DNA from: Candidatus Thorarchaeota archaeon
GTDB taxonomy: Archaea > Asgardarchaeota > Thorarchaeia > Thorarchaeales > Thorarchaeaceae
Direction of reading: 5' to 3'
DNA: 64,000 bases
Assembly: GCA_016933575.1 (NCBI GenBank)
Contig: JAFGAR010000064.1
Span: 1-64,000, forward strand
Below, in pieces: positions 1-14,266 of this stretch. The notes under the pieces were generated by a model, which was given only the letters and a program-made list of their open reading frames with translations, was not told where the DNA came from and searched no databases. Position 1 is the first letter of the stretch, and each line of letters begins with the position of its first letter. The translations under genes and the position numbers were made by a program.

Positions 1-2
1 AA

Positions 3-734
3 TCAACTTGTGAAGACAATGAAGTAGAAATTGTGATCAATTCCACATTCAATGAAATTGTTCCTTATTGGCTTCTAATTAATTTCTGGCCACGTCTGTT
101 TGTTGATGTTTTCGGTTCAACTACTACAGGAGCGATATATGCAATTTCAATTTCAACAGATATTCTTGGAGATATGCAAATACATTCATTGTTCATATCA
201 ACTGAAGCAGAAGAGGGTCGAACAGCGGATCAGATTGAGGAAGATGGATACAACATAGTAGATATCACGCTTGATTTTATCGGACGCTATGCATCAATCA
301 TTGTTCTTGGTTCAGTTCTTGGCCTATTATGGAAAGCCATCGATAGTTTGTCGGCTATAATTGTTAACCTCCCCACGTTCTTAGCAGTGATTGGTTTGAT
401 GGCCTATTGGCTGGTAGCATTTGTTGGTTTCATCTTTATCATCGAATGGTTAGTTTCACCTGATGGAGATGGAAGAGATCCATGGGCAGGAGCTGGAGCT
501 ATGTTAGGATTGATGCTCGCCTTTTTTGCGGGTCCTCTTTGGGCTGCAATAACGGGATTATGGGCAATAGCTGGATGGTATGAAAAATGGAATCCATGGG
601 GTGGGTTTACTCAATCTAAGATGTGGAACTTTAAATGGTTCATTATCAGTTTTGTTACTAAGATTGTAGTACTTGTAGTATGCCTCCATTTCTTTGCAAG
701 GTACTACGCAATGGGAGTCAATTTAAGGATGTGA
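3..734 (+). CDS. Variable C-terminal 'tip' cassette 1 (multi-TM); frame open to the window edge, 5' end not visible
   Basis: Frame is stop-free from nt 3 (STCEDNEVEIVIN...). Carries PYWLLINFWP and STDILGD motifs shared with ORFs 4004, 5344 and 7391, then several hydrophobic helices. Confidence 0.75.
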   Translation, partial: STCEDNEVEIVINSTFNEIVPYWLLINFWPRLFVDVFGSTTTGAIYAISISTDILGDMQIHSLFISTEAEEGRTADQIEEDGYNIVDITLDFIGRYASIIVLGSVLGLLWKAIDSLSAIIVNLPTFLAVIGLMAYWLVAFVGFIFIIEWLVSPDGDGRDPWAGAGAMLGLMLAFFAGPLWAAITGLWAIAGWYEKWNPWGGFTQSKMWNFKWFIISFVTKIVVLVVCLHFFARYYAMGVNLRM

Positions 735-1279
735 AGGGTATATTGATAGCAATCATATTCATATTATTACTAGGTACAATTGTGGCTGTTTGTGATCATT
801 ACTACAAAAAACCGGAGCCCAATAGATTTTTTAAATGGCTAGGCGCAAAGCTGTTTGGTGCATATTTCCGTAGCTTGATGATTTGGGAGCTACTTGTTAT
901 CACAATTTTCATCGTTGCATATTTCGATTTGTTTAAGCCCGAGTATTACTTCTCCAGCTTTGCCTTGTTCTATTGGTTCATAGGAGTGTTCGGGCTTTTC
1001 ATGACTGCTCTCTGGAATCATCTTAGATACTATCCTGTTGATAAGAAAGAATACTACCTGGGGCAATATTTGATAGAAGTATCTAAAGAAAAAGCGGCGC
1101 ACAATGAAGAAATGACTTTGTTCTTCACAAAACTAATCGCAGACTTTGAAAATCAACATGAGCATGAAAACTATGCTGAATATGAAGCAGCAAAGACTTA
1201 CTTCTTAAAAAGTGATGATGCGGTTGGGATTCGATTCAGGAAAATATACAAGGAGTTAATAGATTCAGGAAGTGAATGA
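731..1279 (+). CDS. Membrane partner (immunity-like) protein of cassette 1
   Basis: GTG at 731 overlaps the upstream TGA (GTGA coupling) and is preferred to the ATG at 680. Three TM segments; C-terminal YFLKSDDAVG motif resembles those of ORFs 6806 and 9693. Confidence 0.7.
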   Translation: MKGILIAIIFILLLGTIVAVCDHYYKKPEPNRFFKWLGAKLFGAYFRSLMIWELLVITIFIVAYFDLFKPEYYFSSFALFYWFIGVFGLFMTALWNHLRYYPVDKKEYYLGQYLIEVSKEKAAHNEEMTLFFTKLIADFENQHEHENYAEYEAAKTYFLKSDDAVGIRFRKIYKELIDSGSE

Positions 1280-1543
1280 GTTCTATTTTGGGTAGGATTG
1301 GTAAATTCGCTTTCTGAAGAAAGTCAAATTCTTTTATGACTCTAGCAAATTTTCAAGAGATGGTATTCAGGTGGAATGCCTATTTTGGATGCTAAGATTG
1401 TTTCTTCATGTTCACACAACAAGTGTTCTTAGGAAAATATTTTGTTTTAGGATTTCCAACGATTACTGTTTTTCCGCTTTTGAGTTTTTAATGAAGAGGT
1501 TCCATTGATAAACACAGAAGACAAAAATAATACAAAAATCCGA

Positions 1544-1850
1544 GGACATGGGGGCAGTGGTCAATCCCGAGCAGGTCATCACCTGCAGCAGAATTTGATG
1601 CAGTACCTTCTATACAAATAATGATCTCTGGTATTGTTGCATTGGTTTTATGGGGAGCATTCAACATCACAAAATTGTACTCCGCAAGAGTAAATAGTTC
1701 AAAACCGTCTTTACTGAATTCCTAGAACGAGTACCCCTCAATCCCTTCCATGATGCAGGATATGGGGCCATTGTGTCAGGTCTTGCTCTTCTGGCCATTG
1801 GTTTTGGATTGATTGTGTTTGGAGTTCAATATGCTATGGGAATAATTTAA
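1544..1850 (+). pseudogene. Decayed tip cassette (stalk relic plus C-terminal TM remnant)
   Basis: 1544-1558 GGACATGGGGGCAGT is identical to 5901-5915 (DMGAVVNPEQVI vs DMGAVANPYRQI). Downstream frame reads KIVLRKSK*FKTVFTEFLERVPLNPF...FGVQYAMGII*, with an internal TAG at 1695 and TAA at 1848. Confidence 0.6.
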
Positions 1851-1865
1851 TCAGGAGATACATGT

Positions 1866-2267
1866 ATGGCATCACTAGAGGTGGAAAACGCACTCGTAAT
1901 TCTGGAGATTGCAAGCCGCGTTGGAAATTTGATATTATTACTTATACTTACATATCCAGTAAGGTATGATGGAAGAAGAAGTGGTGTGAAAATAAGATTA
2001 TTTTGGAAAGTAGTTCTTAGATTACCAATCGTAACGGCTCTTCTCTTGTTTTGGGTATGCTCATTTCTGGTATCCCCTCTACTATTGCCATATGTGTTTC
2101 AGTTCGAACTATTCAATGAAATCATAGCAAACTGGGCTGGAATAATCTTTCCAATTATACCCTCAGGATTAGTGATAATCGCACTTCTTTCAAAATACTA
2201 TCCTCCTATCAAAGAGTCTTTCAGAGATGATTTCATCCACCAAGGGGAGGTTGATGGCACCAACTGA
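1866..2267 (+). CDS. Small 3-TM partner (immunity-like) protein
   Basis: AGGAG RBS, 15 nt after the stop of the tip remnant; hydrophobic helices. Confidence 0.65.
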   Translation: MASLEVENALVILEIASRVGNLILLLILTYPVRYDGRRSGVKIRLFWKVVLRLPIVTALLLFWVCSFLVSPLLLPYVFQFELFNEIIANWAGIIFPIIPSGLVIIALLSKYYPPIKESFRDDFIHQGEVDGTN

Positions 2268-2315
2268 TACTGACGATATGATTGTGATGAAACGGGTAAG
2301 GCGTGGTGAAGATAT

Positions 2316-2621
2316 ATGCAACCTCTACTATTCTTCTCTTTGTTCATGTTCGCCTTTATGATATACCTTGATAATCGAGGCAAAAACGTCAAACCAGAAT
2401 CAATGATCCAAAAAATCGACTCAGTGCTCTTCTCCAGTGTCCGTCGGGCAATGGTTGTGTACTTCATTAGCGGCCTTGGAGTTCCTATTGACATCATTCT
2501 CTTTACCTATTCCGATTATTTGATCGAGCCCCTGTTATTCAGTGGTCTTTATTGCATCAGTTTACTGGTGGTGATCCTTGGTTCTGTTTTCTATGCTAGG
2601 AATCGTGAGAGAGGAAATTGA
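2316..2621 (+). CDS. Small 3-TM membrane protein (orphan partner-like)
   Basis: GGTGA upstream; 101 aa hydrophobic; same strand and context as the partners. Confidence 0.6.
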   Translation: MQPLLFFSLFMFAFMIYLDNRGKNVKPESMIQKIDSVLFSSVRRAMVVYFISGLGVPIDIILFTYSDYLIEPLLFSGLYCISLLVVILGSVFYARNRERGN

Positions 2622-2626
2622 AGTAA

Positions 2627-2836
2627 TGCAAAGCGAAACCTGAGTACAGCTCATCCAATAGGGAGCTCCAATCCCATTCTTTCAAGCCATTCCTGCCTTA
2701 TCCTACAGCAACATTCTTTATTTGGAAGGTTGTAGAGGTAATAACAATAGGTTCACTTGCAGTTAGATTTGTGATAATCGTGGCTGGTCTAATGCTGCTA
2801 TCAATTGTTTTGCAATACAGGGTAGGGAATTTTTAA
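2627..2836 (+). pseudogene. Start-less C-terminal tip remnant
   Basis: Open frame ...TFFIWKVVEVITIGSLAVRFVIIVAGLMLLSIVLQYRVGNF* ends 1 nt before ATG 2838. Its end resembles the other tip ends (QYAMGII*, RYYAMGVNLRM*). Confidence 0.45.
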
Positions 2837-2837
2837 A

Positions 2838-3212
2838 ATGATAGACATGATAGTAGGAATCGCTCTTCTGGCCTTTACTGGAGTCCTTATAATTTGCATT
2901 CCTGCGGTCATTGGAGGATTGACATTTCGATGGATTGGAGCATCCACTAATAATGTGAAGACATATGGAACCTATCAGACAAGGATGGATTACATATTTG
3001 ACATTATGTCTTTGATACCATCGTTCGTTGTCAGTTATGTTTGGAGCGCATATCTTCTGACATTTATCTTTGAGGTGTTGACAGGATATGCGCCTCTATA
3101 CACTGCAATTGGAGGAACAATTGTTATGTGGATTCTGTTAGCCTTATTCATCTGGAAGATACGTCAAATAAGGCATAACATGTTAGAAAATGGGCAATTC
3201 TCAAAGAACTAG
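2838..3212 (+). CDS. Small 3-TM partner (immunity-like) protein
   Basis: 124 aa, three hydrophobic helices, directly after a tip-like remnant. Confidence 0.65.
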   Translation: MIDMIVGIALLAFTGVLIICIPAVIGGLTFRWIGASTNNVKTYGTYQTRMDYIFDIMSLIPSFVVSYVWSAYLLTFIFEVLTGYAPLYTAIGGTIVMWILLALFIWKIRQIRHNMLENGQFSKN

Positions 3213-3218
3213 ACTACA

Positions 3219-3530
3219 ATGAGGCAAACCTCATTCAAATGCAATGGAGAATGCTCACTGCTTGCTCTAAACAAGGCTGATGCGAATCGTTGTGCTATTC
3301 TCGATATGCAGGAAAAAACTTCTGGTGTAAAGTCACTAACGAAGTACTTTGAAGAAACCTACTACAAAGGGAACAAGGTAAACACGGGTTGGGAGAGCCG
3401 GAAGCACTTTAGACTCATGTTCGGGTAGCTCGTGGTCTTCCTTACGATTGTGTTTGTAGCAGCAGGTATATTGCTTGGATGGTTCGACTCATGGAAGGTA
3501 AACAACGTAGGTTCTCAAATGGCAACATAA
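3219..3530 (+). pseudogene. Decayed tip C-terminus with internal TAG
   Basis: GVKSLTKYFEETYYKGNKVNTGWESRKHFRLMFG*LVVFLTIVFVAAGILLGWFDSW...* aligns with the end of ORF 7391 (GWTRITQYW...ETGWKGR + TM). TAG at 3426, true end TAA at 3528. Confidence 0.6.
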
Positions 3531-3550
3531 GTTACTAGGAAGGTGTAAGT

Positions 3551-3937
3551 ATGAGCTACTATGAATTTGGAGTATTCGTGATAGTTCTCACATGTGGTCT
3601 CTTACTCTGGTTACTACTGCGCAACTATCGTTGGATAGCGGTACGTCTCTCACGCTCTTTAGCTCAGAAAGGACAAGACACCAGCGGCATTAGGGGCTCT
3701 TGGTATGTCCAGAACATTTCCACAGTGTGGAGATCGCGTATCTATCACGTCATGGAGATAACTCTGCCAGCTGCAACAGTAATCATACTTGCAATAGCTC
3801 TGATACCATCATCTGGTTATGAACTGGCATTGCTCTTCTTAGTCATGTTTCCACTACTTGTGTTTGAGGGGTTCATGATGGGCTCGAGGATTTACAAGAT
3901 GCGGCTATCACCAGTAGTGAGTGAAGAAAAAGTATAG
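3551..3937 (+). CDS. Small 3-TM partner (immunity-like) protein
   Basis: AGGAAGGTG RBS; N-terminal TM, soluble loop, two further TMs. Confidence 0.65.
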   Translation: MSYYEFGVFVIVLTCGLLLWLLLRNYRWIAVRLSRSLAQKGQDTSGIRGSWYVQNISTVWRSRIYHVMEITLPAATVIILAIALIPSSGYELALLFLVMFPLLVFEGFMMGSRIYKMRLSPVVSEEKV

Positions 3938-4003
3938 GTGGCTATTACCTAGTCCTAACAACGCAGAAGACTACTAAATGCATATAGGAAAGTCGGTGCA
4001 GAC

Positions 4004-4897
4004 TTGTTGTTCTCCATGGCAGTGAAGGGATTCATGGGTCAGGGGTATGCGTCAAACCCCATGCTGGACATGCGCATCTATGATATCAACACGGTTGCAC
4101 AACCGAATAGAGTGGTTCCCGAAGCTCCGACACCAGAAGAGCCTACGGACTGTGATGGAACTACGTCTCTATCTGTTGAAACTACAGAAGCTATGGAGGA
4201 TGATTTTACAGCGTCGTCATTACGCATTGTCACATACTGGGCAGGATTGTGGCCTCTCCTCCACTTTTTTGTTGATGCGCCGCTTGCCCCTGATCAGATA
4301 CCTGAAGAACATCCTGCTAAACCTGCACAGGGAAAAATGCTACATTTTCATACAGCAAAGAACCTCCTTGGAAATATTGAGCAACAGGAAGTTTATACTC
4401 TTGGAGATAGCTCCTTCGGAAAGCCTAGTGATGCCATTATAGGCCAGCAAGTCGCTCTCTTAGCTACCATAATAAAAGGATCATTAAATCTCGCTCTAAT
4501 AGGTCTGGAAATCGCAGCGACAGCAGGCATAGCACCTGCAATAGTAGCATTTATTGCATCTACGGTCATATTGACCTTAGCGTTTTTTGGGATGTACCAT
4601 TGGTACACACAAATGATGCTCGAAAAAGGTAGTTGGACACACTACACATGTTTTTGGGTTTGGCTTGTGTTGGGATTAGGATTTATTTTGCAAATGGTAT
4701 TTAATGCCGTCGCAGCATTATTCTTAGGCTTGATTGCGCCAATGACACCTGTTGCAAAAGTAGCATCAGAGTGGTTAGCAGGACTTAATCCGTTTAGAGC
4801 TATAGCTTCAGGAGCTAAGCTGGCATTCTTCTATATGCTTGCAATGGCAGTATATTGCTTCGACATAGCTATCAGGCATCTGATACAATCATTCTAA
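4004..4897 (+). CDS. Variable C-terminal tip cassette (N-truncated, multi-TM)
   Basis: Begins with a diverged junction (GYASNPMLDMRIYDINTVAQPNRVVPE); YWAGLWPLLH and NLLGN motifs; about 4 TM helices; start uncertain (TTG or internal ATG). Confidence 0.75.
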   Translation: MLFSMAVKGFMGQGYASNPMLDMRIYDINTVAQPNRVVPEAPTPEEPTDCDGTTSLSVETTEAMEDDFTASSLRIVTYWAGLWPLLHFFVDAPLAPDQIPEEHPAKPAQGKMLHFHTAKNLLGNIEQQEVYTLGDSSFGKPSDAIIGQQVALLATIIKGSLNLALIGLEIAATAGIAPAIVAFIASTVILTLAFFGMYHWYTQMMLEKGSWTHYTCFWVWLVLGLGFILQMVFNAVAALFLGLIAPMTPVAKVASEWLAGLNPFRAIASGAKLAFFYMLAMAVYCFDIAIRHLIQSF

Positions 4898-4920
4898 AAT
4901 CAAGGAGGAGATGGTGAATA

Positions 4921-5298
4921 GTGGAAATTGTACTATTTCTTGTTTATATCGTTACTATTGTAATATTCATCTTGCCTACTCTGCTATTTCAGGGGATAAG
5001 GCTTCGTCGCACATTGCAGACAATGGGTGTTGCAGTCAGACCCGAATCGAAGTACGAGACTCGGGCTAGTAGAACAATACAAGGTAAATACAGTGACCTA
5101 ATTCAATTAGTAGTATTTGTGATACCAATATTCACCTGCTTCCTTGGACTCATCCTCTGGCCTACAATTCTTCAAGAACCTATCTCAAGTTACGTGACGT
5201 TTCTAATCCTATTCATGATAGTCATATACCTCTCTATTGTACCACTACGTCTGTTCATAGAGAGATGGGTGAGATACAGGCTCTCCGACGCACCATAA
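4921..5298 (+). CDS. Small 3-TM partner (immunity-like) protein
   Basis: AGGAGGAG...GGTGA RBS, GTG start 23 nt after the tip stop. Confidence 0.7.
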   Translation: MEIVLFLVYIVTIVIFILPTLLFQGIRLRRTLQTMGVAVRPESKYETRASRTIQGKYSDLIQLVVFVIPIFTCFLGLILWPTILQEPISSYVTFLILFMIVIYLSIVPLRLFIERWVRYRLSDAP

Positions 5299-5343
5299 CT
5301 GTTTCTTCCAAAAACGCACTAAGCAAAAGGGCACGGGAGATAC

Positions 5344-6798
5344 TTGGAAACACGGATTCACGATATCAACGTCGTAGCGGACTTGAAGTGGAATCAACGT
5401 GCTGTAACACTCCTGGATCCATGCGATACTATGGATAACTTTGAGAAGGATCCTAATTTCGGATGGGGCACGGTTTCAGCAGGAGAACTCTATGTTCCCT
5501 CCGGTCAGAGCTATATGACCTCTACTGGTATCCCTACAACTCCCGCAGGTTGGCACGGACCTACATATGTCTATGAACTTGAAGCTCCCTTCAGTCTGTA
5601 CAACCTGTACCTCTTTAGTATTCATGGTGAACTATTTCAGTACTATGACCAGATGGGGCTCACAGAGATCGCCCTGTTCGATGTGGACAAACAACCAGTG
5701 TTGTACATGTACTGGGGTGATTCGTGGCTTGGAGAAAATAAGGGATATTTCCATGTAGTCTACTATCCACAGGGTGGAAGTGCGGTCTCCGACACAACCG
5801 GGTACATCTATACCTCCTTCTACCGTATCGGTGAGTTCAGGGTGATCGGTGGTCATGTGACCTATAAGATCAAGGACCCGGGTGGAACCCTCCAGAGCGG
5901 GGACATGGGGGCAGTAGCCAACCCCTATCGCCAGATCAAGTACCTTGCTATCCGGATGGAGCGCTACTCTGGTTACGCTATGAACGACATGCGCCTTCAC
6001 GCTGTCAACCTCTATGCTGACCAGGAGACCCTGGTGCCGGAGCCGGAGGCTGCGGATGGAACTCCAGAAGGATATAATCCTTGTCCAGAAGCGACGAGTT
6101 TTGTTGATTTATTGGTTGGCATGGCAATTGCTAATACTGTTTCGTGGTGGACTGGTTGGTGGCCTCTACTACACTCAAGAACTACAGGTACACTTGCATC
6201 TGGGGCAACATATGCATATCAAATGTCTGTAGATCTTCTTAGTAATGTTGCTATGGAAGATTTTGCTGTAGATACTCCAGCGGATGACCAGCTGACTGAC
6301 GAACAAATCAATCTAATGGCTCAGACTAGTGTTTTGGACCTCTTTGCTGAAGCTTTCACTATTGATGCTGCTATTCTTTGGGGTGCATCGATTGTTATGG
6401 GTACAATTGACATACTTCTTGCGGTAATTACGAAAGTTCCTACTCCACCACAGCTTGTGTTACTAGCTGTTCTTGTCTTAGCATATACTGGAGCTATGCT
6501 TTTAGGACTTGCTGCACTCTGGGAAGGCTTATTATCAGGAAGAATATCTGCATCTGCTGCGTACGCTATTTTAGTAGTAACACTTACATCTTTGGTTTTC
6601 GAAGGTATTCTTGCAAGTATAAATGGATGGAAAATTTTCGCAGATTGGTGGAACCACTACAAACAGGCAAGCAAGAAGCTCTGGGCAAAAAGATATTGCT
6701 TCATGTCCTGGGTGATTTTTTGTGTGAAGATGATGTTTATAGCCATTGTACTTGCAATGACAGTCAGGGTCTACGACTTCTGGATTCAGGGATATTGA
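5344..6798 (+). CDS. Longest tip cassette: one ~213-aa beta-rich stalk repeat + junction + variable multi-TM tip
   Basis: TTG start inside a repeat-end motif (TRIHDINVVAD); a second motif (MRLHAVNLYAD) lies 213 codons later; WWTGWWPLLH, VDLLSN; hydrophobic C-terminal half; no signal peptide. Confidence 0.8.
   Translation: METRIHDINVVADLKWNQRAVTLLDPCDTMDNFEKDPNFGWGTVSAGELYVPSGQSYMTSTGIPTTPAGWHGPTYVYELEAPFSLYNLYLFSIHGELFQYYDQMGLTEIALFDVDKQPVLYMYWGDSWLGENKGYFHVVYYPQGGSAVSDTTGYIYTSFYRIGEFRVIGGHVTYKIKDPGGTLQSGDMGAVANPYRQIKYLAIRMERYSGYAMNDMRLHAVNLYADQETLVPEPEAADGTPEGYNPCPEATSFVDLLVGMAIANTVSWWTGWWPLLHSRTTGTLASGATYAYQMSVDLLSNVAMEDFAVDTPADDQLTDEQINLMAQTSVLDLFAEAFTIDAAILWGASIVMGTIDILLAVITKVPTPPQLVLLAVLVLAYTGAMLLGLAALWEGLLSGRISASAAYAILVVTLTSLVFEGILASINGWKIFADWWNHYKQASKKLWAKRYCFMSWVIFCVKMMFIAIVLAMTVRVYDFWIQGY
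5938..6060 (+). repeat. Junction repeat copy A (123 bp)
   Basis: 112/123 nt identical to 7373-7495 by manual codon comparison. Confidence 0.95.
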
Positions 6799-6805
6799 GG
6801 ATGGT

Positions 6806-7345
6806 GTGATGATGATCGGTCTGTCTTTGTTACTTGGCGCAATGACACTTTTCATTGCATTATTGATACTAGAGATAATCATCAGGTTTCAGAGAGGGAG
6901 TTCTCTTCAACGAAACTACACCCGGATTGCCACCTCACCCAATCTCAATCTTGTTCTCTACGAACTTGTAGCTATCCTTGTCACGATTGGACTCCCACTC
7001 TATATAGAAGAGAGTCAACATCCCTTCTTGATAGAGGTCTGGCCAACGGTAATCCAGAGAATGACTATAGGATTGATGAGTGTTGTTGGAGTATTGGTGA
7101 TTCACATAGTTCGATATGGACGTCTAGGTCTTGATAAGAGATACGCACAAAGAATCTATGATGTTGCAGCCTCAAATGCGGAGTACGATGAAATACCTGA
7201 AAGAGGTCTAGAAGAGGCAATTGCTTTAGTGAATACTCTGAGATCCAACAGTCCAGCAGCTACCGAAAGAGGATTCCTCGAATATCTCTCATCTCGTGAT
7301 GATAGATTGGGTGAAATTGCTAGAGAGAAACTTGTAGCTATATGA
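6806..7345 (+). CDS. Membrane partner (immunity-like) protein with soluble C-terminal helical domain
   Basis: 7 nt after the tip stop; 3 TM; C-terminal FLEYLSSRDDRLGEIAR motif. Confidence 0.7.
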   Translation: MMMIGLSLLLGAMTLFIALLILEIIIRFQRGSSLQRNYTRIATSPNLNLVLYELVAILVTIGLPLYIEESQHPFLIEVWPTVIQRMTIGLMSVVGVLVIHIVRYGRLGLDKRYAQRIYDVAASNAEYDEIPERGLEEAIALVNTLRSNSPAATERGFLEYLSSRDDRLGEIAREKLVAI

Positions 7346-7372
7346 TCCATAGATAGAATATCGTTTTTCGAG

Positions 7373-7495
7373 AAGTACCTTGCCATCCGGATGGAACGCG
7401 CCTCTGGCTACACCATGAACGACATGCGCCTCCACACGGTCAACCTCTACGCTGACCAGGAGACCCTGGTGCCGGAGCCGGAGGCTGCGGATGGA
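7373..7495 (+). repeat. Junction repeat copy B (123 bp, 77/123 GC)
   Basis: Encodes KYLAIRMERASGYTMNDMRLHTVNLYADQETLVPEPEAADG; starts 27 nt after the previous partner's stop. Confidence 0.95.
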
Positions 7496-8230
7496 TCATA
7501 CCAATCTATGAGCGAGCATGATACATCTGAAGGCAATCCTTATGTTAATCAGGCAGATAATTCCGTAGAAGTATATTGGACTGGATGGTGGCCTGAAGTT
7601 CATGTTTTAATTACTCAAGAATTATCAGTAGTTTGCAGTGTTTTCCTACACGTTAAGGTGGACCTAATAGGAAGTTTTGATGTGGTTGAAAGTGATTCAA
7701 ACTTTTTTGGACTTCAAGCAATGACCACAACTGATCAGGAACAAGCTGAAGAAGATACGGAGGATATGGCGGATTCAATTTGGAGTGATCTATCAAATGT
7801 ACTTGCCGTAGCAGTAGCAATTTCATCGTTGGCGTTAGTAGTATGTACAATTCTCATGCAAATTACCGGTGTTTGGCAACCTTGGCTACTCTCGCTTATG
7901 TTTTGGTTTGGGTCAGTCCTTGCTTTGATGGTCGAGCTCTACAACCAATGCATATCCAATGATATAACTGGTCCATTTGCAGCTTTGAAATACTTCATCA
8001 TGGTTTGCTCACTCCTAGGAGTTGTTGTTGGGTCCTTAGGTACGTTATGGATGATTGGGTGCAGGGGATGGACACGAATAACACAATACTGGACACACGG
8101 AAGATACTTCAAAATAAATTCGGAAACAGGATGGAAGGGACGTTCAAGTTCGGGTAATCTTATCGCTGCCTTGGTCTTATTGGGAGTGTTATTATTGCTA
8201 TCGTATTCATTATATACATATAACGAATAA
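7391..8230 (+). CDS. Variable C-terminal tip cassette (N-truncated, multi-TM)
   Basis: The start Met is internal to the junction repeat; YWTGWWPEVH, VDLIGS, acidic linker, about 4 TM. Confidence 0.8.
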   Translation: MERASGYTMNDMRLHTVNLYADQETLVPEPEAADGSYQSMSEHDTSEGNPYVNQADNSVEVYWTGWWPEVHVLITQELSVVCSVFLHVKVDLIGSFDVVESDSNFFGLQAMTTTDQEQAEEDTEDMADSIWSDLSNVLAVAVAISSLALVVCTILMQITGVWQPWLLSLMFWFGSVLALMVELYNQCISNDITGPFAALKYFIMVCSLLGVVVGSLGTLWMIGCRGWTRITQYWTHGRYFKINSETGWKGRSSSGNLIAALVLLGVLLLLSYSLYTYNE

Positions 8231-8237
8231 TTAAGAG

Positions 8238-8648
8238 GTGAACATAGTGGAAATAATGATTTGGTTACCTATTGGAATTGCATTAGCAATTGCATGCTTT
8301 CTGTTTTTTGGGTATGCCTTTGCACGGGGGGTTGCTGTAATAGCTGACCAAAGAAGGGGTTTAAGTCGTGAGATTGCGGGATTTTCAAAGGTATATGTGC
8401 TAGCAATGAAACGGATATCAACTGAGATTGTGTTCTACTTACTCCTTTTTGTCCTACCAGTTATTAGTGTATTTTTACCTGGAATGATAATTGCACCAGA
8501 AGAATCAATCCAACTAGTCTTTGATAACTGGTACGCCTTTATTGCATTAGTTGTTTTTGCATTTGCATTCCCACTTTGCATGAAGCCTACAGGCGAAGAG
8601 AAAGACGAGTTTGAATTTGAAGACTCTAGAATTCATAACAATAACTAG
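8238..8648 (+). CDS. Small 3-TM partner (immunity-like) protein
   Basis: GTG start 7 nt after the tip stop; three hydrophobic helices. Confidence 0.7.
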   Translation: MNIVEIMIWLPIGIALAIACFLFFGYAFARGVAVIADQRRGLSREIAGFSKVYVLAMKRISTEIVFYLLLFVLPVISVFLPGMIIAPEESIQLVFDNWYAFIALVVFAFAFPLCMKPTGEEKDEFEFEDSRIHNNN

Positions 8649-8650
8649 AA

Positions 8651-8868
8651 CCATCCAGCTCCAGCGGTACTCAGCTGACGCCATGAACGACATGCGGTCC
8701 ACGACATCAATCACTACGCTGACCAGAATACACTGAAGCCGGAACCGGAGGTGATGGATGGGACTAGCGATTCTCAGAACGCTGTGAATCATGTTGGAAT
8801 CAATCAATTCACAGATAACATTGAAAGTGATGTTGTGGTCTGCTATAGATTGGTGGCGAGATCTTCAT
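8651..8868 (+). pseudogene. Frameshifted tip relic with degenerate junction repeat copy C
   Basis: IQLQRYSADAMNDMR/(1-nt deletion)/HDINHYADQNTLKPEPEVMDGT, then WWRDLH at 8851-8868 in another frame. Confidence 0.75.
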
Positions 8869-8982
8869 CCCTTTTCAAGATGGAGAGCATTCTTATGATG
8901 ATGGATATATCAGAAGAGATGAATTCAAATCTCCAAAGGATTATATCTGGATATGGCGGATAGATTTGTGGAAGTGTAGAGT

Positions 8983-9201
8983 ATGAGCAAACTCAACTTA
9001 CCTATTCTTGTCGAGGTCGACGAGGATGGCGTCTATATCGTGAGTTGCCCCGTGTTCAAAGGATGCCACTCATACGGAGAAACTATTGATGAGGCTCTGG
9101 AAAATCTGAGAGAGGTCATTGATATGTGCCTTGAAGGTGAAGAGGTGGCTAGTTTGAACCAATTCATTGGATTCCGAGAGATAGAAATTACTATTCCGTA
9201 G
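8983..9201 (+). CDS. hicB: HicB-family antitoxin (short, RNase H-fold only)
   Basis: ILVEVDEDGVYIVSCPVFKGCHSYGETIDEALENLREVI is the typical HicB signature. Confidence 0.88.
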   Translation: MSKLNLPILVEVDEDGVYIVSCPVFKGCHSYGETIDEALENLREVIDMCLEGEEVASLNQFIGFREIEITIP

Positions 9202-9251
9202 GAATCTTTCTAGTGGCTCTCTTTTTTATATTGCTTTCAGGTGGCGCAATC

Positions 9252-9491
9252 ATGTCACGACTTCCTGCTATCGAAGGTCAACAACTGGTCAAAGTACTAC
9301 AGAGGCTTGGATTTGTGATCGTTCGTACAAAGGGGTCTCATGTACGGATGAGAGCAGAGGATGGAAGAGTGACAACAGTTCCTATCCACGCTAAGAAGAT
9401 TTTGCCAAAGGGTCTCCTTAGAAAGATTATTCGAGAAGATTTGAAAATGGAACTCAACGAGTTTATTGATATCTTCTTCGAGCTGAAATAG
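9252..9491 (+). CDS. hicA: HicA-family mRNA interferase toxin
   Basis: MSRLPAI...LQRLGF...KGSHVRM...TTVPIH...LPKGLLRKII; ATG 9252 after GGTGG. Confidence 0.9.
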   Translation: MSRLPAIEGQQLVKVLQRLGFVIVRTKGSHVRMRAEDGRVTTVPIHAKKILPKGLLRKIIREDLKMELNEFIDIFFELK

Positions 9492-9520
9492 ATGTCATAC
9501 ATCAAACCTCCTGTGTAACC

Positions 9521-9696
9521 TGCGCCTCCACACGGTCAACCTCTACGCTGACCAGGACACCCTGGTGCCGGAGCCGGAGGAGGCAGATGGGACTCCAGAA
9601 GGAATTTTGACGAGTAGTGATTTTGAAATCGCTGAAAATGCTTACGAATCTTCAAATTCACTGTATGCAATAACTTGGACATTGATTAATTTTTGA
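9521..9696 (+). pseudogene. Junction repeat copy D plus truncated tip
   Basis: 9521-9580 is 59/60 identical to 7425-7484; reads RLHTVNLYADQDTLVPEPEEADGTPEG...YAITWTLINF*P, with TGA where cassette 1 has LINFWP. Confidence 0.85.
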
Positions 9697-10061
9697 CCTG
9701 TTTCATTACACCAATTACTTTCAGAGATTGCATCTACCATCGGTTCGTAGTAATAAACGATCTATCGAAGGCATTCTTTACTGTTCTCTTTGCCATTCTA
9801 TTCTATCTTAATAAGGACACAAATGAAACTAATGAACAGGGTATTCACGGGTACGCAATTCTCCTCGAGTCTTCGATGAGAAAGGTAGATAGACCTGAGG
9901 CAGTCCTCCGTCGGACAGTCAATAGAATGATTCAGAGGGGAAAACCATCAAAGGACAAGATACTAGACATCCTTGAATATTTCATTGATCAGAATGATGA
10001 AGTAGGCAAAGAAGCAAAGATGCTCTGGGATGAGTTGAACTCTGAAGAAACAGCAATTTGA
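9693..10061 (+). CDS. Partner-family protein, probably N-truncated
   Basis: C-terminal ILEYFIDQNDEVGKEAK motif matches ORFs 731 and 6806; only one TM remains. Confidence 0.55.
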   Translation: MTCFITPITFRDCIYHRFVVINDLSKAFFTVLFAILFYLNKDTNETNEQGIHGYAILLESSMRKVDRPEAVLRRTVNRMIQRGKPSKDKILDILEYFIDQNDEVGKEAKMLWDELNSEETAI

Positions 10062-10200
10062 AACATTCCGTTACAGCTGTATGTAAGTTGTATGCGTAAA
10101 AGCAACTGAAATGGGTATTTAGGGCATCCTAATCAACAAGCTTCATATGGCCTCGCTGAGAGGACTCTGGTAGATGAGCTATACATGAGGTCTGATTCTT

Positions 10201-11499
10201 TTGTCAGTTGCACCAGTCCTGCTTCCAAAAGGGAGCACTTCAGATGTAATAGAGACTAGAAGACATGAGATACTTGGCCTCAACGGAAGACTCTGGCGCT
10301 TAGCGCTTGTTGCTGGAATTGCTCAACTCTCAGTGAGTATCTGGACTTGGCAATTTGCTATTTTTTTGGACACTTTTCTGAATCCTTGGGACATAGGTTT
10401 GACCTTTACTATAGGTACACTTGCAGCATTGGTAGGCTATCCAATCTCTGGTGCGTTGGCTGATGTTGTTGGCAGAAAGAAGACTATGATTTTTTCTTTT
10501 ATTCCCTTGTGTCTTGGTCTCTTCATGCTTTACATCATTCCCGTTTGGCCTTACGTTGTTGCATCCTATGGCCTTACACAATTCGGTTGGAGCTTCATCA
10601 TTATTATCACGAGAGCAATGCCCGCAGATGAGATTGCTAGAGAGCATATGATGGATTCGACCAAGAAATTCACGATGGTGTTAATGCCTGCGTTTCTAAT
10701 GGATGGAATCAGCCCGATTCTTGCTGTGTTGCTAATCCAATCTGGTTCTAGTCTTAGCTATCTATTGCTTATTGGCGCAGTCGCCGGAATCGTTGCACTG
10801 CTTCTTACTGTATTATTTGTACAAGAGACCTTGCATCCCGAGACAAAGAGAAAAGCTCGGTTGGAACCTAAGGTCTCTATTAGGAAACTTGGACAGAAGT
10901 TTTGGTACTTTACTGGAGGAATGGTCGGATACTATCTTGCATGGGGTCTAGCAATTCCATACCTAGGCCCCCTGAGTGTAGACGCATGGGGTATTGATGT
11001 TTCAATATATGGTCTAACATGGAGTGCTTTTTCATTATCAACTGTTCTGTTGATGTATGGGCTGAGTAGCTTTGCAGATAGAGGCCGTAGAAGAGCTCTG
11101 ATTGTAGGTCTCGCTGCTAATGGACTGATTATGATATTATTCGGTATAGGGTCTGGTGTCTTGACCATGTTTGCTCTGAACATTCTCTGGGCTGGTCCAA
11201 TTGTGGTATGGATTGGTGTTGAACGAAGCCTAGCAATAGATGGTGTTGCAGATCAATTCAAAGGTCGAGCCTTAGCAACCTATCAATTGATTACTAGTAT
11301 CACGGGTCTCATCGCCACGCCTGCAGGAGCCTTGATCTGGGAGATCACATCCAGTTTGAGATTTCTCTGGATTCTCTCCGGATTGCTGGCTTTACTCTCA
11401 CTATCAATAATCTACTGGAGTATCTATTACAAACCAAGACCTGATATCACATCAAATGTTAAGATCAGACGTAAGAGAGTTGTACAAAGTCGAATATAA
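10201..11499 (+). CDS. MFS transporter
   Basis: 12 TM pattern, GALADVVGRKK motif A. Confidence 0.9.
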   Translation: MSVAPVLLPKGSTSDVIETRRHEILGLNGRLWRLALVAGIAQLSVSIWTWQFAIFLDTFLNPWDIGLTFTIGTLAALVGYPISGALADVVGRKKTMIFSFIPLCLGLFMLYIIPVWPYVVASYGLTQFGWSFIIIITRAMPADEIAREHMMDSTKKFTMVLMPAFLMDGISPILAVLLIQSGSSLSYLLLIGAVAGIVALLLTVLFVQETLHPETKRKARLEPKVSIRKLGQKFWYFTGGMVGYYLAWGLAIPYLGPLSVDAWGIDVSIYGLTWSAFSLSTVLLMYGLSSFADRGRRRALIVGLAANGLIMILFGIGSGVLTMFALNILWAGPIVVWIGVERSLAIDGVADQFKGRALATYQLITSITGLIATPAGALIWEITSSLRFLWILSGLLALLSLSIIYWSIYYKPRPDITSNVKIRRKRVVQSRI

Positions 11500-11525
11500 C
11501 GGTAAATTGAGAATTACAACTATGG

Positions 11526-11885
11526 TCAGAAGACAATATCTTTCATCATCTTGACTTTGCCGTTTTCGATCGGTACACCCTCTTCTATGCAGTGTTGGCG
11601 TCTTCCTGAGGCTCGATTCGGGTCGCCTCCAAAACTTCCATCCTCCTTTACGACACGATGACATGCAACTACAGGAAAGAGGGGATTTTTGTGTAACGAG
11701 TTGGCTACTGCTCGATAGGCCTTGGGTTTTCCAATCATCATGGCAACCCTTCCATACGTACTTACCTTTCCCTTTGGAATTCGAAATGTAGCTGCATAGA
11801 CCTTACTGTCGAATTCAGTATATCCTTGAATCTCCAGAGTAGCTCGTCTAACATCATCCTCTGTCTTGATCTTGTTGAGGTCCAT
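11526..11885 (-). CDS. ogt: MGMT family O6-alkylguanine-DNA alkyltransferase (DNA-binding/catalytic domain only)
   Basis: IPKGKVSTYG, RAVA, NP..VVACHRVV. Confidence 0.85.
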   Translation of the reverse strand: MDLNKIKTEDDVRRATLEIQGYTEFDSKVYAATFRIPKGKVSTYGRVAMMIGKPKAYRAVANSLHKNPLFPVVACHRVVKEDGSFGGDPNRASGRRQHCIEEGVPIENGKVKMMKDIVF

Positions 11886-12045
11886 TATGTATCCTCCACA
11901 TTAGTTCGATAGAGGTGAAACCATCGATATTGAATATGGCTCTTTCACTCACTGCATCCGAGTGTGTTTACCACCTATGACGATGGAATCTTGGGAAAGA
12001 GAGATAAGGCTGAAGGACTATCAGAGAAACGAAAGAGGGTGTTAG

Positions 12046-12495
12046 ATGAGCGAGACCATTGAACCCATCAAGATTAAGAGCATCCTAGTAGCAGTGGATG
12101 GTTCGGCACATTCTGAGAAGGCAGTACGATATGCGTGCGCTATGGGTCCTCCTCTTGGTGCAGAAGTCGTCCTGCTTCATGTAGTTCCTATGGTTGTGTC
12201 AGCAACTCCGTATCATGATACGGTTTCTGATCAGCCATTCATTTCACTCCAGAATCTTGGAGAGGATATTCTAGAGCGCGCAAAGAAACTAGCTAATCGA
12301 TGCGGCTGTGAGGTTGTTGATATGATATCGCATGGAGACCCTGCAGCTCAGATCATTGATATCGCAAGTGAGCGGGGCGTAGATATCATCATCATTGGTT
12401 CAAGAGGACTTAGTGGGATTAAGAGACTATTCACGGGTTCAATCAGTGACAAGGTCTCGAAGAGTGCATCGTGTCCTGTGATGATTATTCGTTAG
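12046..12495 (+). CDS. Universal stress protein
   Basis: ILVAVDGS, GDPA, IIIGSRG, GSIS..V...A.CPVMII. Confidence 0.95.
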   Translation: MSETIEPIKIKSILVAVDGSAHSEKAVRYACAMGPPLGAEVVLLHVVPMVVSATPYHDTVSDQPFISLQNLGEDILERAKKLANRCGCEVVDMISHGDPAAQIIDIASERGVDIIIIGSRGLSGIKRLFTGSISDKVSKSASCPVMIIR

Positions 12496-12507
12496 TAGAA
12501 TAAACTC

Positions 12508-13788
12508 ATGGGATGTTTTCTGTTGCCCGGGTCTAACGACTATGGAATCGCTGTGGATATTGGTACGACAAATATTACATTTTATCTCGTCAGACTTAAT
12601 AATAATCATATAGAGAATCGTCTACTGATGAGAAATCCTCAAAGCTTTTTTGGAGCTGATGTGATTTCCCGAATTAGGCACTCATTGGTAAGCCATCAAC
12701 ATAAATTAGAACTTGTTGAGTCAATCCGAGAAGTAGTAGAGCGAGGTGTTGAAGGTCTCCTAGAGGAAGTTGATGTTAGACCTTCCCGAGTTTCGGATGT
12801 TGTGATAGTTGGTAACACTGTCATGCACCATCTGTTCTTTGATCTCTCTCTTGATTCTCTCACGCGACCTCCCTATCAGGCATCCGATAAGAAAGCTATT
12901 CATATAGATGCCTCCAATATTGGACTTGATATCCTGCAAAAAGCAGAATGCTATTCTCCTCCCGTTGTTGAGTCATTTATCGGTCCGGATGCAATTGCAG
13001 TCCTTATTGCGAGTAACTATTTGGATGAAAGATCAAATCAGATAGTGATAGATGTAGGAACTAATACTGAGATATCAGTCATTACTCCTAAAGGGATATG
13101 GATTGTATCAGCAGCATCTGGACCGGCCTTTGAAGGAATGGCTATTGATTGCGGAATCGGAGGAGAGATTGGAGCTATCAATAAAGTGAGTGTAGACTCG
13201 AAGACTTACAGACCAATGATATCCGTTATCGGTAACAGTCGTCCTCGCGGGATTTGTGGAACAGGTGCTGTATCTGCTATGGCATCAATGCTTGATGCTA
13301 ATTTGTTACTCCCTCACGGTTCGCTAAATAGAGATCTCAATTCAAAATGGCTGTCTTTCGACGGCAGCATTGCAAGGTACATCCTTGAATTTCCTGACAA
13401 CACGACAACTGGTAGTGCTATCTATTTAGCTCAAACTGACATTCGTATGCTTCAACAGTCCAAGGCTGCAATTCGTGGAGCTATAGAGGTTGTTCTCATG
13501 GAGGCAAATACAAAATCTTCAGAACTCACTGCTCTATTTCTTACTGGTGTGTTTGGTTCAGACCTTCAGATCGAGGATGCCTATCGTATTGGCATGTTCC
13601 CACACTTCAAGGGAATTCGCATTCAGCAGACTCCACGAGGAGCTGTAGATGGAGCAGCAATTCTTCTTAAGAGTGAGAACAGACTTCTCGCAGAGAGTCT
13701 CGTCGAAGAACTCAATTATATAGAACTCACCGAAAATGAAGATTTCAAGAGAATGTACTTGGAATCATTTCCCTTTCCTAATAGATGA
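12508..13788 (+). CDS. ASKHA-type reductive activator of corrinoid proteins (RACo/DUF4445-like), no Fe-S domain
   Basis: IAVDIGTT, NPQ..FGADVISRI, GNTVMHH, IDVGTNTE, GPAFEG, GICGTG, Q.DIR..Q..KAAI. Confidence 0.85.
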   Translation: MGCFLLPGSNDYGIAVDIGTTNITFYLVRLNNNHIENRLLMRNPQSFFGADVISRIRHSLVSHQHKLELVESIREVVERGVEGLLEEVDVRPSRVSDVVIVGNTVMHHLFFDLSLDSLTRPPYQASDKKAIHIDASNIGLDILQKAECYSPPVVESFIGPDAIAVLIASNYLDERSNQIVIDVGTNTEISVITPKGIWIVSAASGPAFEGMAIDCGIGGEIGAINKVSVDSKTYRPMISVIGNSRPRGICGTGAVSAMASMLDANLLLPHGSLNRDLNSKWLSFDGSIARYILEFPDNTTTGSAIYLAQTDIRMLQQSKAAIRGAIEVVLMEANTKSSELTALFLTGVFGSDLQIEDAYRIGMFPHFKGIRIQQTPRGAVDGAAILLKSENRLLAESLVEELNYIELTENEDFKRMYLESFPFPNR

Positions 13789-14266
13789 GTTCCTCATTTT
13801 CGAAGTTTTCACCACTTCGAATTCTTGAAGATGATAATGGTCTACCATCTTGAGTTCTGACCATGGGTATGATTACTATATGGAACCTTCGCAATCCATT
13901 ATCGATTCTCAATTGATTGATGTCGAATGCATTCTGGACAACTCCAATCTCATCAGAAACAATCAATGCTTCTAAGTCTTCCATTGTATCGCCACCTCCC
14001 TCTCTCGTATTTATTGGAAAGATAGAGGCTCTTTGAATATCACATTCATCCTTGAGGAAGTCTTCAATCTGGCAATATCTCTCCTCGTATGATTGGATTA
14101 TTTCTCTGTTAGTCTTGAATCTCAACATATGATCAGTGGTGAGACCGATGGCAACAGACCTGCCCAATTTGAAAGCTGTACGCATGATGTGTTTATGCCC
14201 TTCGTGCAACCTGTCAAAGGTGCCAGCAAAGACGACCTTGTTGTATAACCAATGGTCGTCTTCCAT
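13778..14266 (-). CDS. coaD: Phosphopantetheine adenylyltransferase, archaeal/eukaryotic type
   Basis: GTFDRLHEGH, GLT.D, IN.LR..NGL, LSSSRIR. Confidence 0.88.
   Translation of the reverse strand: MEDDHWLYNKVVFAGTFDRLHEGHKHIMRTAFKLGRSVAIGLTTDHMLRFKTNREIIQSYEERYCQIEDFLKDECDIQRASIFPINTREGGGDTMEDLEALIVSDEIGVVQNAFDINQLRIDNGLRRFHIVIIPMVRTQDGRPLSSSRIRSGENFENEELIY

Follow-up and report, generated by a model that had tools for sequence, protein, structure and literature searches.

A predicted polymorphic C-terminal cassette system on a lectin-bearing surface protein of Thorarchaeota

Introduction

Polymorphic toxin systems (PTS), as described by Zhang et al. 2012 (PMC3482391), combine a large exported multidomain protein, whose conserved body gives way at a conserved motif to a hypervariable C-terminus, with a small cognate gene directly downstream, arrays of C-terminal/partner units devoid of an N-terminus, solo immunity-like genes that are kept, and a patchy island-like distribution. 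All these features recur in a locus of Candidatus Thorarchaeota archaeon (assembly GCA_016933575.1) that we describe here, a large part of which occupies positions 1-10061 of the 64,000-nucleotide (nt) stretch analysed (contig JAFGAR010000064.1, positions 1 to 64,000; the window). Genes for C-terminal modules ending in membrane helices (tips) alternate there with genes for small membrane proteins (partners), and the layout, judged from sequence, corresponds to the architectural criteria of PTS (PMC3482391). The Thorarchaeota locus differs from those systems in having no known toxin, immunity, pre-toxin, releasing-peptidase or secretion domain, in its tips, which form one polytopic family with a charge pattern of insertion in cis, and in its Asgard host. 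Classical PTS are reported to be generally scarce in archaea (PMC3482391), and in predicted archaeal PTS the toxin moieties are usually nucleases (PMC8416519).

The nearest archaeal analogue appears to be the VARTIG system of Thermococcales (Makarova et al. 2021, PMC8416519), which likewise comprises a large surface protein with a recombination-driven hypervariable C-terminus followed by subtype-specific small membrane proteins, is PTS-like in its organization and has no identifiable toxin. Its variable part is an Ig domain and it is found in Thermococcales only, whereas the Thorarchaeota system has a four-helix membrane variable module, ConA-like repeats and long arrays of truncated cassettes. 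Membership in VARTIG was rejected on account of these repeats, of the variable module with four transmembrane (TM) helices and of an occurrence in one Thorarchaeota family only.

The organization is also shared with the CdiA-CT/CdiI and Rhs-CT/RhsI systems, in which orphans retain an arm of homology that extends as far as a demarcation motif, where recombination swaps the tip together with its partner. The demarcation is VENN in CdiA and PxxxxDPxGL in Rhs; in Thorarchaeota it is the last strand of a lectin domain plus PxPxxxDG[T/S]. Unlike CdiA and Rhs, the Thorarchaeota carrier and tips are accompanied by no FHA or RHS repeats, CdiB, type V or type VI secretion system in Pfam scans, and the carrier of the host genome is inverted relative to its array. 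An assignment to CdiA/CdiB/CdiI was rejected (no FHA/haemagglutinin repeats in Pfam, another junction motif, no conserved neighbour gene), as was one to the Rhs/YD-repeat proteins (no RHS repeat in Pfam, a different linker motif). Pfam scans of the carrier and of all tips were negative for Rhs, haemagglutinin, LXG and nuclease domains, in agreement with an earlier note on this DNA that had recognised none of them in the locus.

Pore-forming colicins and the TspA-TsaI pair of S. aureus offer another parallel, a membrane-acting C-terminal domain being neutralised in both by a small polytopic membrane protein. TspA/TsaI immunity genes occur in multiple copies, and the pore domains of colicins are soluble bundles that insert from outside. 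In contrast, the Thorarchaeota tip has the look of a co-translational insertion, its cytoplasmic loop being basic, and no similarity of sequence or fold to these systems was found. No Pfam match to a colicin pore or immunity domain and no colicin among the Foldseek or VIA matches could be detected, by searches that discriminate helical bundles poorly; as judged by the absence of the defining domains, the locus is probably not a member of the colicin family. In the IdsD/IdsE system of Proteus both identity partners are membrane proteins whose variable regions pair cognately, and IdsD is delivered by a type VI secretion system. Orphan arrays of the present kind are not known for IdsD/IdsE, and no homology was found.

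Very little is known about the interactions of Asgard archaea, be it among themselves or with partners. In the full-text literature, searched for Thorarchaeota or Asgard together with polymorphic toxin, we found no description of such a locus, in a coverage that excludes the archaeal PTS survey of Makarova et al. 2019 (mBio), which may list the family. The system presented below is lineage-restricted and has the full genetic signature of polymorphic effector/immunity loci, every part of it being undescribed.

Results and Discussion

A single carrier and the exchange of tips at a shared junction

Our comparative analysis shows a polymorphic C-terminal cassette system, in which a tip and its partner move together and are exchanged, at a common junction, onto a single lectin-bearing surface protein. 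This carrier, predicted to be Sec-exported, is composed of a system-specific N-terminal domain and three ConA-like repeats, with the junction leading over to a tip at the C-terminus. The latter is predicted to consist of a small acidic α/β ectodomain on a four-helix membrane bundle, with the gene for its cognate three-helix partner directly after it. Window 1-10061 stores alternative tip/partner cassettes without an N-terminus, and homologous recombination in the junction or in the lectin arm could bring such a spare tip, together with its partner, onto the carrier.

The existence of a full-length carrier with a signal and the junction, outside the array, had been predicted in the earlier note. 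An early scan of the genome contigs with a lectin-plus-junction peptide gave no match. A search of the host assembly with the protein encoded by the orphan at 5344-6798 led to a 1303-codon open frame on contig C56, where the predicted carrier was found (Table 1). It is abutted by a gene for a 122-aa (amino acid) three-helix partner, and the partner is followed by a junction relic (C56:13605-13691). The orphan cassette arrays of the genome comprise window 1-10061, C56:1-5181, where the array runs on along the minus strand with three further tip/partner pairs, and a second array on contig C57 (258849-263516), the last with one intact tip/partner pair and one truncated tip.

The window and C56 are contiguous. 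C56:1-87 and window 1-87 are exact reverse complements of each other, and this 87-mer is on no other contig; since 20 contig-end pairs in the assembly overlap likewise, the k=87 overlap marks the two as assembly-graph neighbours. When the window frame is extended into C56:~245-1 (minus strand), it becomes an orphan tip of 292 aa that includes its junction, and the first tip of the window is thus whole in the genome and cut only by the contig end.

DNA comparison located junction copies of ~75-125 nt at 5938-6064, 7373-7495, 8651-8777 and 9518-9603 of the window. They are 76-93% nt-identical to each other, to the carrier and to the copies on C56 and C57, and the similarity then stops abruptly, which bears out the earlier description of a shared junction sequence followed by sharp divergence. 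The junction peptide is formed by the last β-strand of a domain (…MNDMRLHxVNLYA…) plus a linker with the motif P-x-P-x3-D-G-[T/S], where D, G and T/S are each found in at least 80 of the 85 aligned sequences; the linker is disordered in the AlphaFold2 (AF2) model.

The orphan at 5344-6798 retains a long homology arm and provides evidence of exchange. It is 82.5% nt-identical to its own carrier over 5345-6064, with no identity beyond. In the lectin arm it shares 82% identity with the own carrier and 63% with that of a congener (G052), whereas its tip matches the tip of the full-length G052 carrier at 74-76% identity and that of its own carrier at no more than 23%. With the arm nearer to one carrier and the tip nearer to the other, this orphan is therefore a mosaic joined at the junction. 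The DNA is collinear with that of G052 (72.5% over 1987 nt), so that one and the same cassette is in use in G052 and stored in the host genome. Likewise, the tip borne by the G003 carrier is matched by an orphan in G023. Among the carriers of six genomes the body is 40-78% identical across genera and the last ~200 aa, corresponding to the tip, 10-36%. Exact matches of up to 50 nt connect the 3′ lectin/junction region of the carrier with the orphan arms.

Cassette content differs between relatives, as does cassette order, and the expectation of the earlier note is borne out in this point. For example, in a related metagenomic population (77% nt identity; L059-L064) the toxin-antitoxin genes HicAB are directly upstream of a cassette matching window 5986-7333, an order that differs from that of the window.

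Tips and partners were found to vary together. Over 28 pairs from seven genomes the similarity of tips correlates with that of partners (r 0.69, permutation p 2e-4), and the four most similar tip pairs hold ranks 1, 3, 8 and 4 of 378 by partner similarity. Within the cassette type of 5344-7345 both genes are under purifying selection, with a ratio of nonsynonymous to synonymous substitution rates (dN/dS) of 0.18 in the tip and 0.17 in the partner.

The retention of the two genes is asymmetric. The host genome has no intact tip without a partner and at least nine partner ORFs (open reading frames) without an intact tip, three of which, present as duplicates, show dN/dS of 0.30-0.43. The partner type of 2838-3212 stands after an intact tip in G025 and solo in G042, a 90%-complete congener with neither tip nor carrier. 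By analogy with bacterial systems, a partner that outlives its tip has the pattern of an immunity gene, and this asymmetry is the main argument for an immunity-like role over that of a mere assembly factor.

Tips, relics and partners of the window

The ORF list covered all six frames of 1-14000, and on the plus strand of 1-10061 tips alternate with small ORFs (Table 1). A tip profile (A1) was built from nine tips of the host genome, and a broader profile was used for relics. The four tips that the earlier note had considered intact were all recovered by the tip profile, and each terminates in ~4 strongly hydrophobic helices. The note's five decayed tips fared less uniformly. Those at 8651 and 9521 are statistically solid by profile, and the relic at 2627 is supported by DNA identity to the C57 array, where its counterpart is a longer, 157-aa tip fragment ahead of the same partner; the 1544 unit is marginal, and the weak 3219 unit is only possibly a tip relic.

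A small membrane ORF follows every unit but the 8651 relic, as had been proposed. We scored ~3 hydrophobic helices in each of those starting at 680, 1866, 2316, 2838, 3551, 4921, 6806 and 8238 (100-200 aa) and one hydrophobic segment in ORF 9693. The claim that these partners are mostly dissimilar also stands, as by BLASTP they are mutually unrecognisable, the exceptions being three partners that recur at 72-86% identity elsewhere among the arrays of the host genome. The copy of the last partner of the window on C56 (1734-2219) belongs to an intact tip (C56:2135-3619). None of the tips and partners of the window reaches any Pfam cut-off. A HicB/HicA pair (Pfam cut-off for PF15919 and PF07927, 27 bits each) is inserted within the array, between two relic cassettes.

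Table 1. Features of the cassette arrays and of the carrier locus in the host genome (window coordinates unless a contig is given).
Feature	Position	Strand	Evidence and remarks
Orphan tip 1, 3′ part	3..734	+	Profile E 1e-57 (3-710); 4 hydrophobic helices
Partner 1, 199 aa, 3 TM	680..1279	+	Overlaps end of tip 1; ORF list; no Pfam family above cut-off
Marginal relic tip (remnant of last lectin strands and terminal hydrophobic remnant)	1521..1860	+	Profile E 0.035 at 1521-1583; translation inspected
Intact partner of 1544 relic, 133 aa, 3 TM	1866..2267	+	SD-like motif upstream
Extra partner-like ORF without tip, 101 aa, 3 TM	2316..2621	+	ORF list; missed in the earlier note
Relic tip, last TM helix only	2627..2836	+	2699-3210 90% nt-identical to C57 array
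Intact partner of 2627 relic, 124 aa, 3 TM	2838..3212	+	86% identical to C57 copy, dN/dS 0.43
Possible relic of tip C-terminus with frame change (weak)	3219..3527	+	Two collinear sub-threshold matches, E 2.7 and 0.27, in adjacent frames (3324-3494)
Partner, 128 aa, 3 TM	3551..3937	+	ORF list, helix scoring
Orphan tip, frame open from 3959, inter-domain junction type (…DMRIYDINTVA…)	4004..4897	+	Profile E 1e-72 (4040-4906); alignment A1
Partner, 125 aa, 3 TM	4921..5298	+	86% identical to solo C57 copy, dN/dS 0.30
Orphan with long homology arm: ConA-like lectin domain aa 21-225, junction/PxPxxxDGT linker ~5986-6064, tip 6061-6798	5344..6798	+	Profile E 1e-96 (5959-6795)
Partner, 179 aa, 3 TM and conserved cytoplasmic helical tail	6806..7345	+	71% identical to partner of G052 carrier, dN/dS 0.17
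Orphan tip beginning in last lectin strand	7391..8230	+	Profile E 1e-93 (7394-8218)
Partner, 136 aa, 3-4 TM	8238..8648	+	ORF list, helix scoring
Relic junction and linker, frameshifted, no partner after	8651..8830	+	Profile E 2e-8 (8653-8828); blastn
HicB (8983-9201) and HicA (9213-9491) toxin-antitoxin pair	8983..9491	+	PF15919 39.8 bits, PF07927 68.8 bits
Relic junction, linker and ~30 aa, tip deleted	9499..9696	+	Profile E 2e-13 (9499-9681)
Partner of deleted tip, 122 aa, last array gene	9693..10061	+	72-75% identical to C56:1734-2219, dN/dS 0.33
Carrier ORF, 1294 aa	C56:9352-13236		Hydrophobic N-terminal segment aa 12-30, ~400-aa domain, three ~210-aa ConA-like repeats, junction, tip
Array continuation, tip/partner pairs	C56:4096-5142/3639-4001, 2135-3619/1734-2219, 794-1822/242-781		
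Antisense ORFs, window	5632-6000, 7289-7435	-	
Antisense ORFs, C56	C56:1595-1813, 4897-5172	+	
Antisense ORF, C56	C56:12115-12480	-	

Phylogenetic distribution

An exhaustive profile search of 1.84 billion representative proteins returned 206 members of the tip family, with the tip always C-terminal; about nine tenths of them are orphan-sized and about a dozen have 600-2100 aa. The family is present in 28/87 genomes of the class (13/17 genera; 4/28 in the host's own genus), and no member occurs among 314 genomes of the 32 remaining families in the phylum. The system is confined to one Thorarchaeota family and is patchy within it. The N-terminal domain of the carrier occurs in 18 of the 87 genomes, usually in one copy per genome, and 15 of these 18 also have tips. 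One carrier per genome compares with up to 22 tips. Relatives with the carrier are Candidatus Thorarchaeota, in line with the Asgard-like host that had been surmised from the letters of the window.

The gene order of carrier, small membrane ORF, orphan tip and small membrane ORF on one strand was observed in five genomes (G052, G023, G003, G007 and G015), the last of which also has nine tips in tandem (G015:C39). At a sixth locus (G065) the carrier is followed by small membrane ORFs only. No conserved flanking, secretion or transporter gene was found by the carriers in six genomes.

Genomic site of the array and inversion of the carrier

Window 1-10061 is the distal half of a ~22-kb accessory island, which lies at a position where congeners have a collinear and empty site. 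In G042 and at least 15 other congeners, one strand carries in collinear order the genes for USP/MGMT, GlyRS, a small TM protein, HMG-CoA reductase and a TPR protein. The MGMT and GlyRS genes are separated by 181 nt in G052, which has its own system elsewhere, and by a solo partner-like ORF alone in G042. The ~22-kb site of the host genome holds the carrier, its partner, the junction relic, a gene for an MNT-type nucleotidyltransferase, the ~15-kb array and a gene for an MFS transporter. Toxin-antitoxin (TA) modules (HicAB here; MNT and HEPN by other arrays) mark these loci as conflict islands.

The block HMG-CoA reductase-TM-GlyRS-carrier-partner-relic (C56 ~5.7-13.7 kb) is inverted relative to both flanks. 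One breakpoint follows directly on the junction relic, whose reading …MNDMRLHT gives way to divergent sequence. At the second breakpoint (C56:5696-5790) a junction copy was looked for and not found, and an inversion by recombination between two junctions therefore lacks support. Carrier and array, which by comparison with the relatives were once collinear, now face apart; recombination between the two would at present invert DNA rather than delete it.

The MFS transporter gene (10201-11499) lies between the last partner and an MGMT-like gene. G042 lacks it at this point, so that it may either be part of the island or have been inserted separately. A paralogue is found on contig C215, adjoining another ConA-like protein.

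Structure and topology of the tip and lectin domains

The 484-aa product of 5344-6798 was modelled by AF2 from an 85-sequence alignment with a mean pLDDT of 87. Residues 21-225 form a β-sandwich, for which the best PDB matches by Foldseek were the carbohydrate-binding module (CBM2) of a phage Dit protein, calreticulin and GH16 glucanases (E 1e-8 to 1e-5). By this model the domain has the ConA-like lectin/glucanase fold. The tip modelled alone (pLDDT 90.8, pTM 0.88) combines one helix and a four-stranded sheet with an amphipathic helix and four long helices.

Past the linker the tips are only 20-34% identical pairwise, yet they can be aligned throughout, with a W-x3-WP-x-LH motif, a DLLG motif, an acidic stretch and the four helices as landmarks, and they therefore constitute one hyperdivergent family. 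They are not unrelated toxin domains, as alignment and profile place all of them in a single module family.

A census of charges in 86 tips gave a net charge of -7.5 for the ectodomain and -3.9 for the segment before TM1. Of the loops, TM1-TM2 is short and neutral, TM2-TM3 slightly acidic and TM3-TM4 basic (3.5 K+R, net +1.6). An acidic ectodomain together with a basic TM3-TM4 loop is the positive-inside pattern typical of N-out domains that pass the membrane four times, and would result from integration of the tip into the membrane of the producer behind the exported lectin stalk. The same pattern of an anchor in cis disfavours a soluble toxin that would insert into its target from outside.

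Fold searches with the tip gave no significant match. PDB Foldseek gave nothing at E<=0.001 and weak claudin/TARP-like rows at E ~0.3; in the comparison with VIA the best Z of 10.7 was to generic helical bundles, within the noise for such bundles; in the ESM Atlas the TM-scores remained below 0.4, and a feature search returned no usable match. A complex predicted with alignments for the tip 6061-6798 and its partner 6806-7345 scored 0.00, which, for a run without controls, is evidence neither way.

Functional interpretation

By analogy with the bacterial systems we consider it probable, with moderate confidence, that tip and partner are an effector/immunity or identity pair acting between neighbouring cells. 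The tip would be an effector or identity module active in membranes, the partner would neutralise or recognise its cognate tip only, and the system would serve antagonism or kin discrimination between neighbours. Given the cis-inserted look of the tip, membrane contact, fusion or vesicles would most likely be needed to bring it to a neighbour.

Several of our observations weigh against this interpretation. All tips belong to one family, with no menagerie of toxins. From its charges the tip looks like an ordinary anchor co-translationally inserted in the producer's own membrane, and no route for it to another cell is evident. Neither Pfam nor fold searches recognised a toxin, immunity or delivery domain. 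In the host genome the carrier is inverted relative to the array, at a distance of 4 kb, and the junction copies are 76-93% rather than fully identical, so that no very recent exchange is visible.

An alternative is a non-toxic allorecognition or adhesion device, in which the lectin carrier provides cell contact and the tip/partner pair is a membrane identity tag gating fusion, membrane exchange or aggregation, with no killing. Polymorphism, co-varying gene pairs and lectin ectodomains would serve such a function equally well, the topology of the tip is that of a resident membrane protein, and no toxin-like domain was found. On the other hand, solo partners persist after the loss of the tip, one of them in a genome without the system, which fits protective immunity better than half a tag; moreover, with the variable part inside the membrane, recognition in trans between cells is hard to picture. 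We regard this alternative as the strongest of those considered, albeit an unlikely one.

A more specific idea, which we rate as rather improbable, is an Asgard self/non-self device in which the lectin engages glycans of the neighbour, and the hypervariable four-helix module, as read out by its cognate partner, governs the outcome, membrane contact, exchange or fusion being either tolerated or lethal. If true, allorecognition loci would have an archaeal counterpart, acting at the membrane-to-membrane interface on which models of eukaryogenesis draw.

Phase or antigenic variation of the surface lectin is more doubtful still. Here the tips would be interchangeable anchors, the partners assembly or stabilising subunits, and the silent cassettes a means to vary the anchor against viruses or the environment. 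The silent-looking cassettes with homology arms and no N-terminus would suit this explanation, as would the topology of a cis-inserted anchor, and the inverted arrangement of carrier and array would permit switching by inversion without loss of DNA. However, the exposed lectin is conserved and the hidden membrane part variable, which is the reverse of what antigenic variation predicts. An assembly factor should decay with its tip, yet the partners outlive their tips, and the whole system is dispensable in most congeners.

A sensor-effector acting in cis, in the manner of abortive infection, has little probability in our view. A ligand of the lectin would open the four-helix bundle in the cell's own membrane, with the partner as inhibitor, and such a function might be read from the joining of an extracellular lectin to a membrane bundle with a small membrane partner, and from the position of the loci among TA modules; but arrays of spare cassettes without N-terminus and mosaics are foreign to known abortive-infection sensors, and one carrier per genome is outnumbered by up to 22 tips. 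Functionless debris, i.e. duplicated 3′ ends of a single surface-protein gene in decay, separated by chance ORFs, is scarcely credible, for although five of the nine units of the window are relics, some barely detectable, the order of tip, partner, tip, partner is kept in many genomes, dN/dS is 0.17-0.18, pLDDT in AF2 reaches 87-91, and tips and partners co-vary.

If functional, the effector/immunity or identity pair that we favour would provide a handle on kin discrimination or antagonism in Thorarchaeota and add membrane effector/partner pairs of a new class. With tips of ~250 aa and partners of 100-200 aa, the system is of a size that lends itself to experiments. An empty and a filled site within one genus, together with a cassette that is an orphan here and part of a carrier there, provide a concrete evolutionary record of cassette exchange.

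Additional observations

The ~400-aa N-terminal domain of the carrier (C56 9352-10700) is specific to the system. It contains a pair of motifs, …IVIYVSHGGP… and …HLFxACxS…, in which H105-G-G and C140 are nearly invariant in 10 carriers, and this pair resembles the His-Gly and Ala-Cys dyad of clan CD (caspase/gingipain). No peptidase was detected in this domain by Pfam, PDB profile search or the CHAT and Peptidase_C25 models, and a feature search of the ESM Atlas gave sub-threshold leads only, CHAT (0.78) among them. The invariant D-G of the linker, which precedes every tip, could be a cleavage site.

The ConA-like domain was also encountered without a tip, in other secreted proteins of the host genome (C215:16859-18883, C78:173052-174194 and C138:83935-87513), and is therefore a general surface module of the lineage. 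One of these tip-less proteins stops exactly at the junction-forming strand.

At least four consecutive solo partner-like ORFs with 3 TM are present in the C57 array, which is flanked by a HEPN (DUF86-like)/MNT nucleotidyltransferase pair. Another case of tips adjoining the GlyRS gene was observed in the congener G035 (C89:36-2090 and 3886-13514), with ~7 kb inserted between the genes for GlyRS and HMG-CoA reductase; this neighbourhood may be a recurrent landing site.

Finally, an antisense ORF (M-E/K-A-H-V/L-V/I-H-…-HPDGKVLDL…) is conserved in every copy of the lectin-end/junction region (Table 1) and is probably a by-product of the conserved sense sequence.

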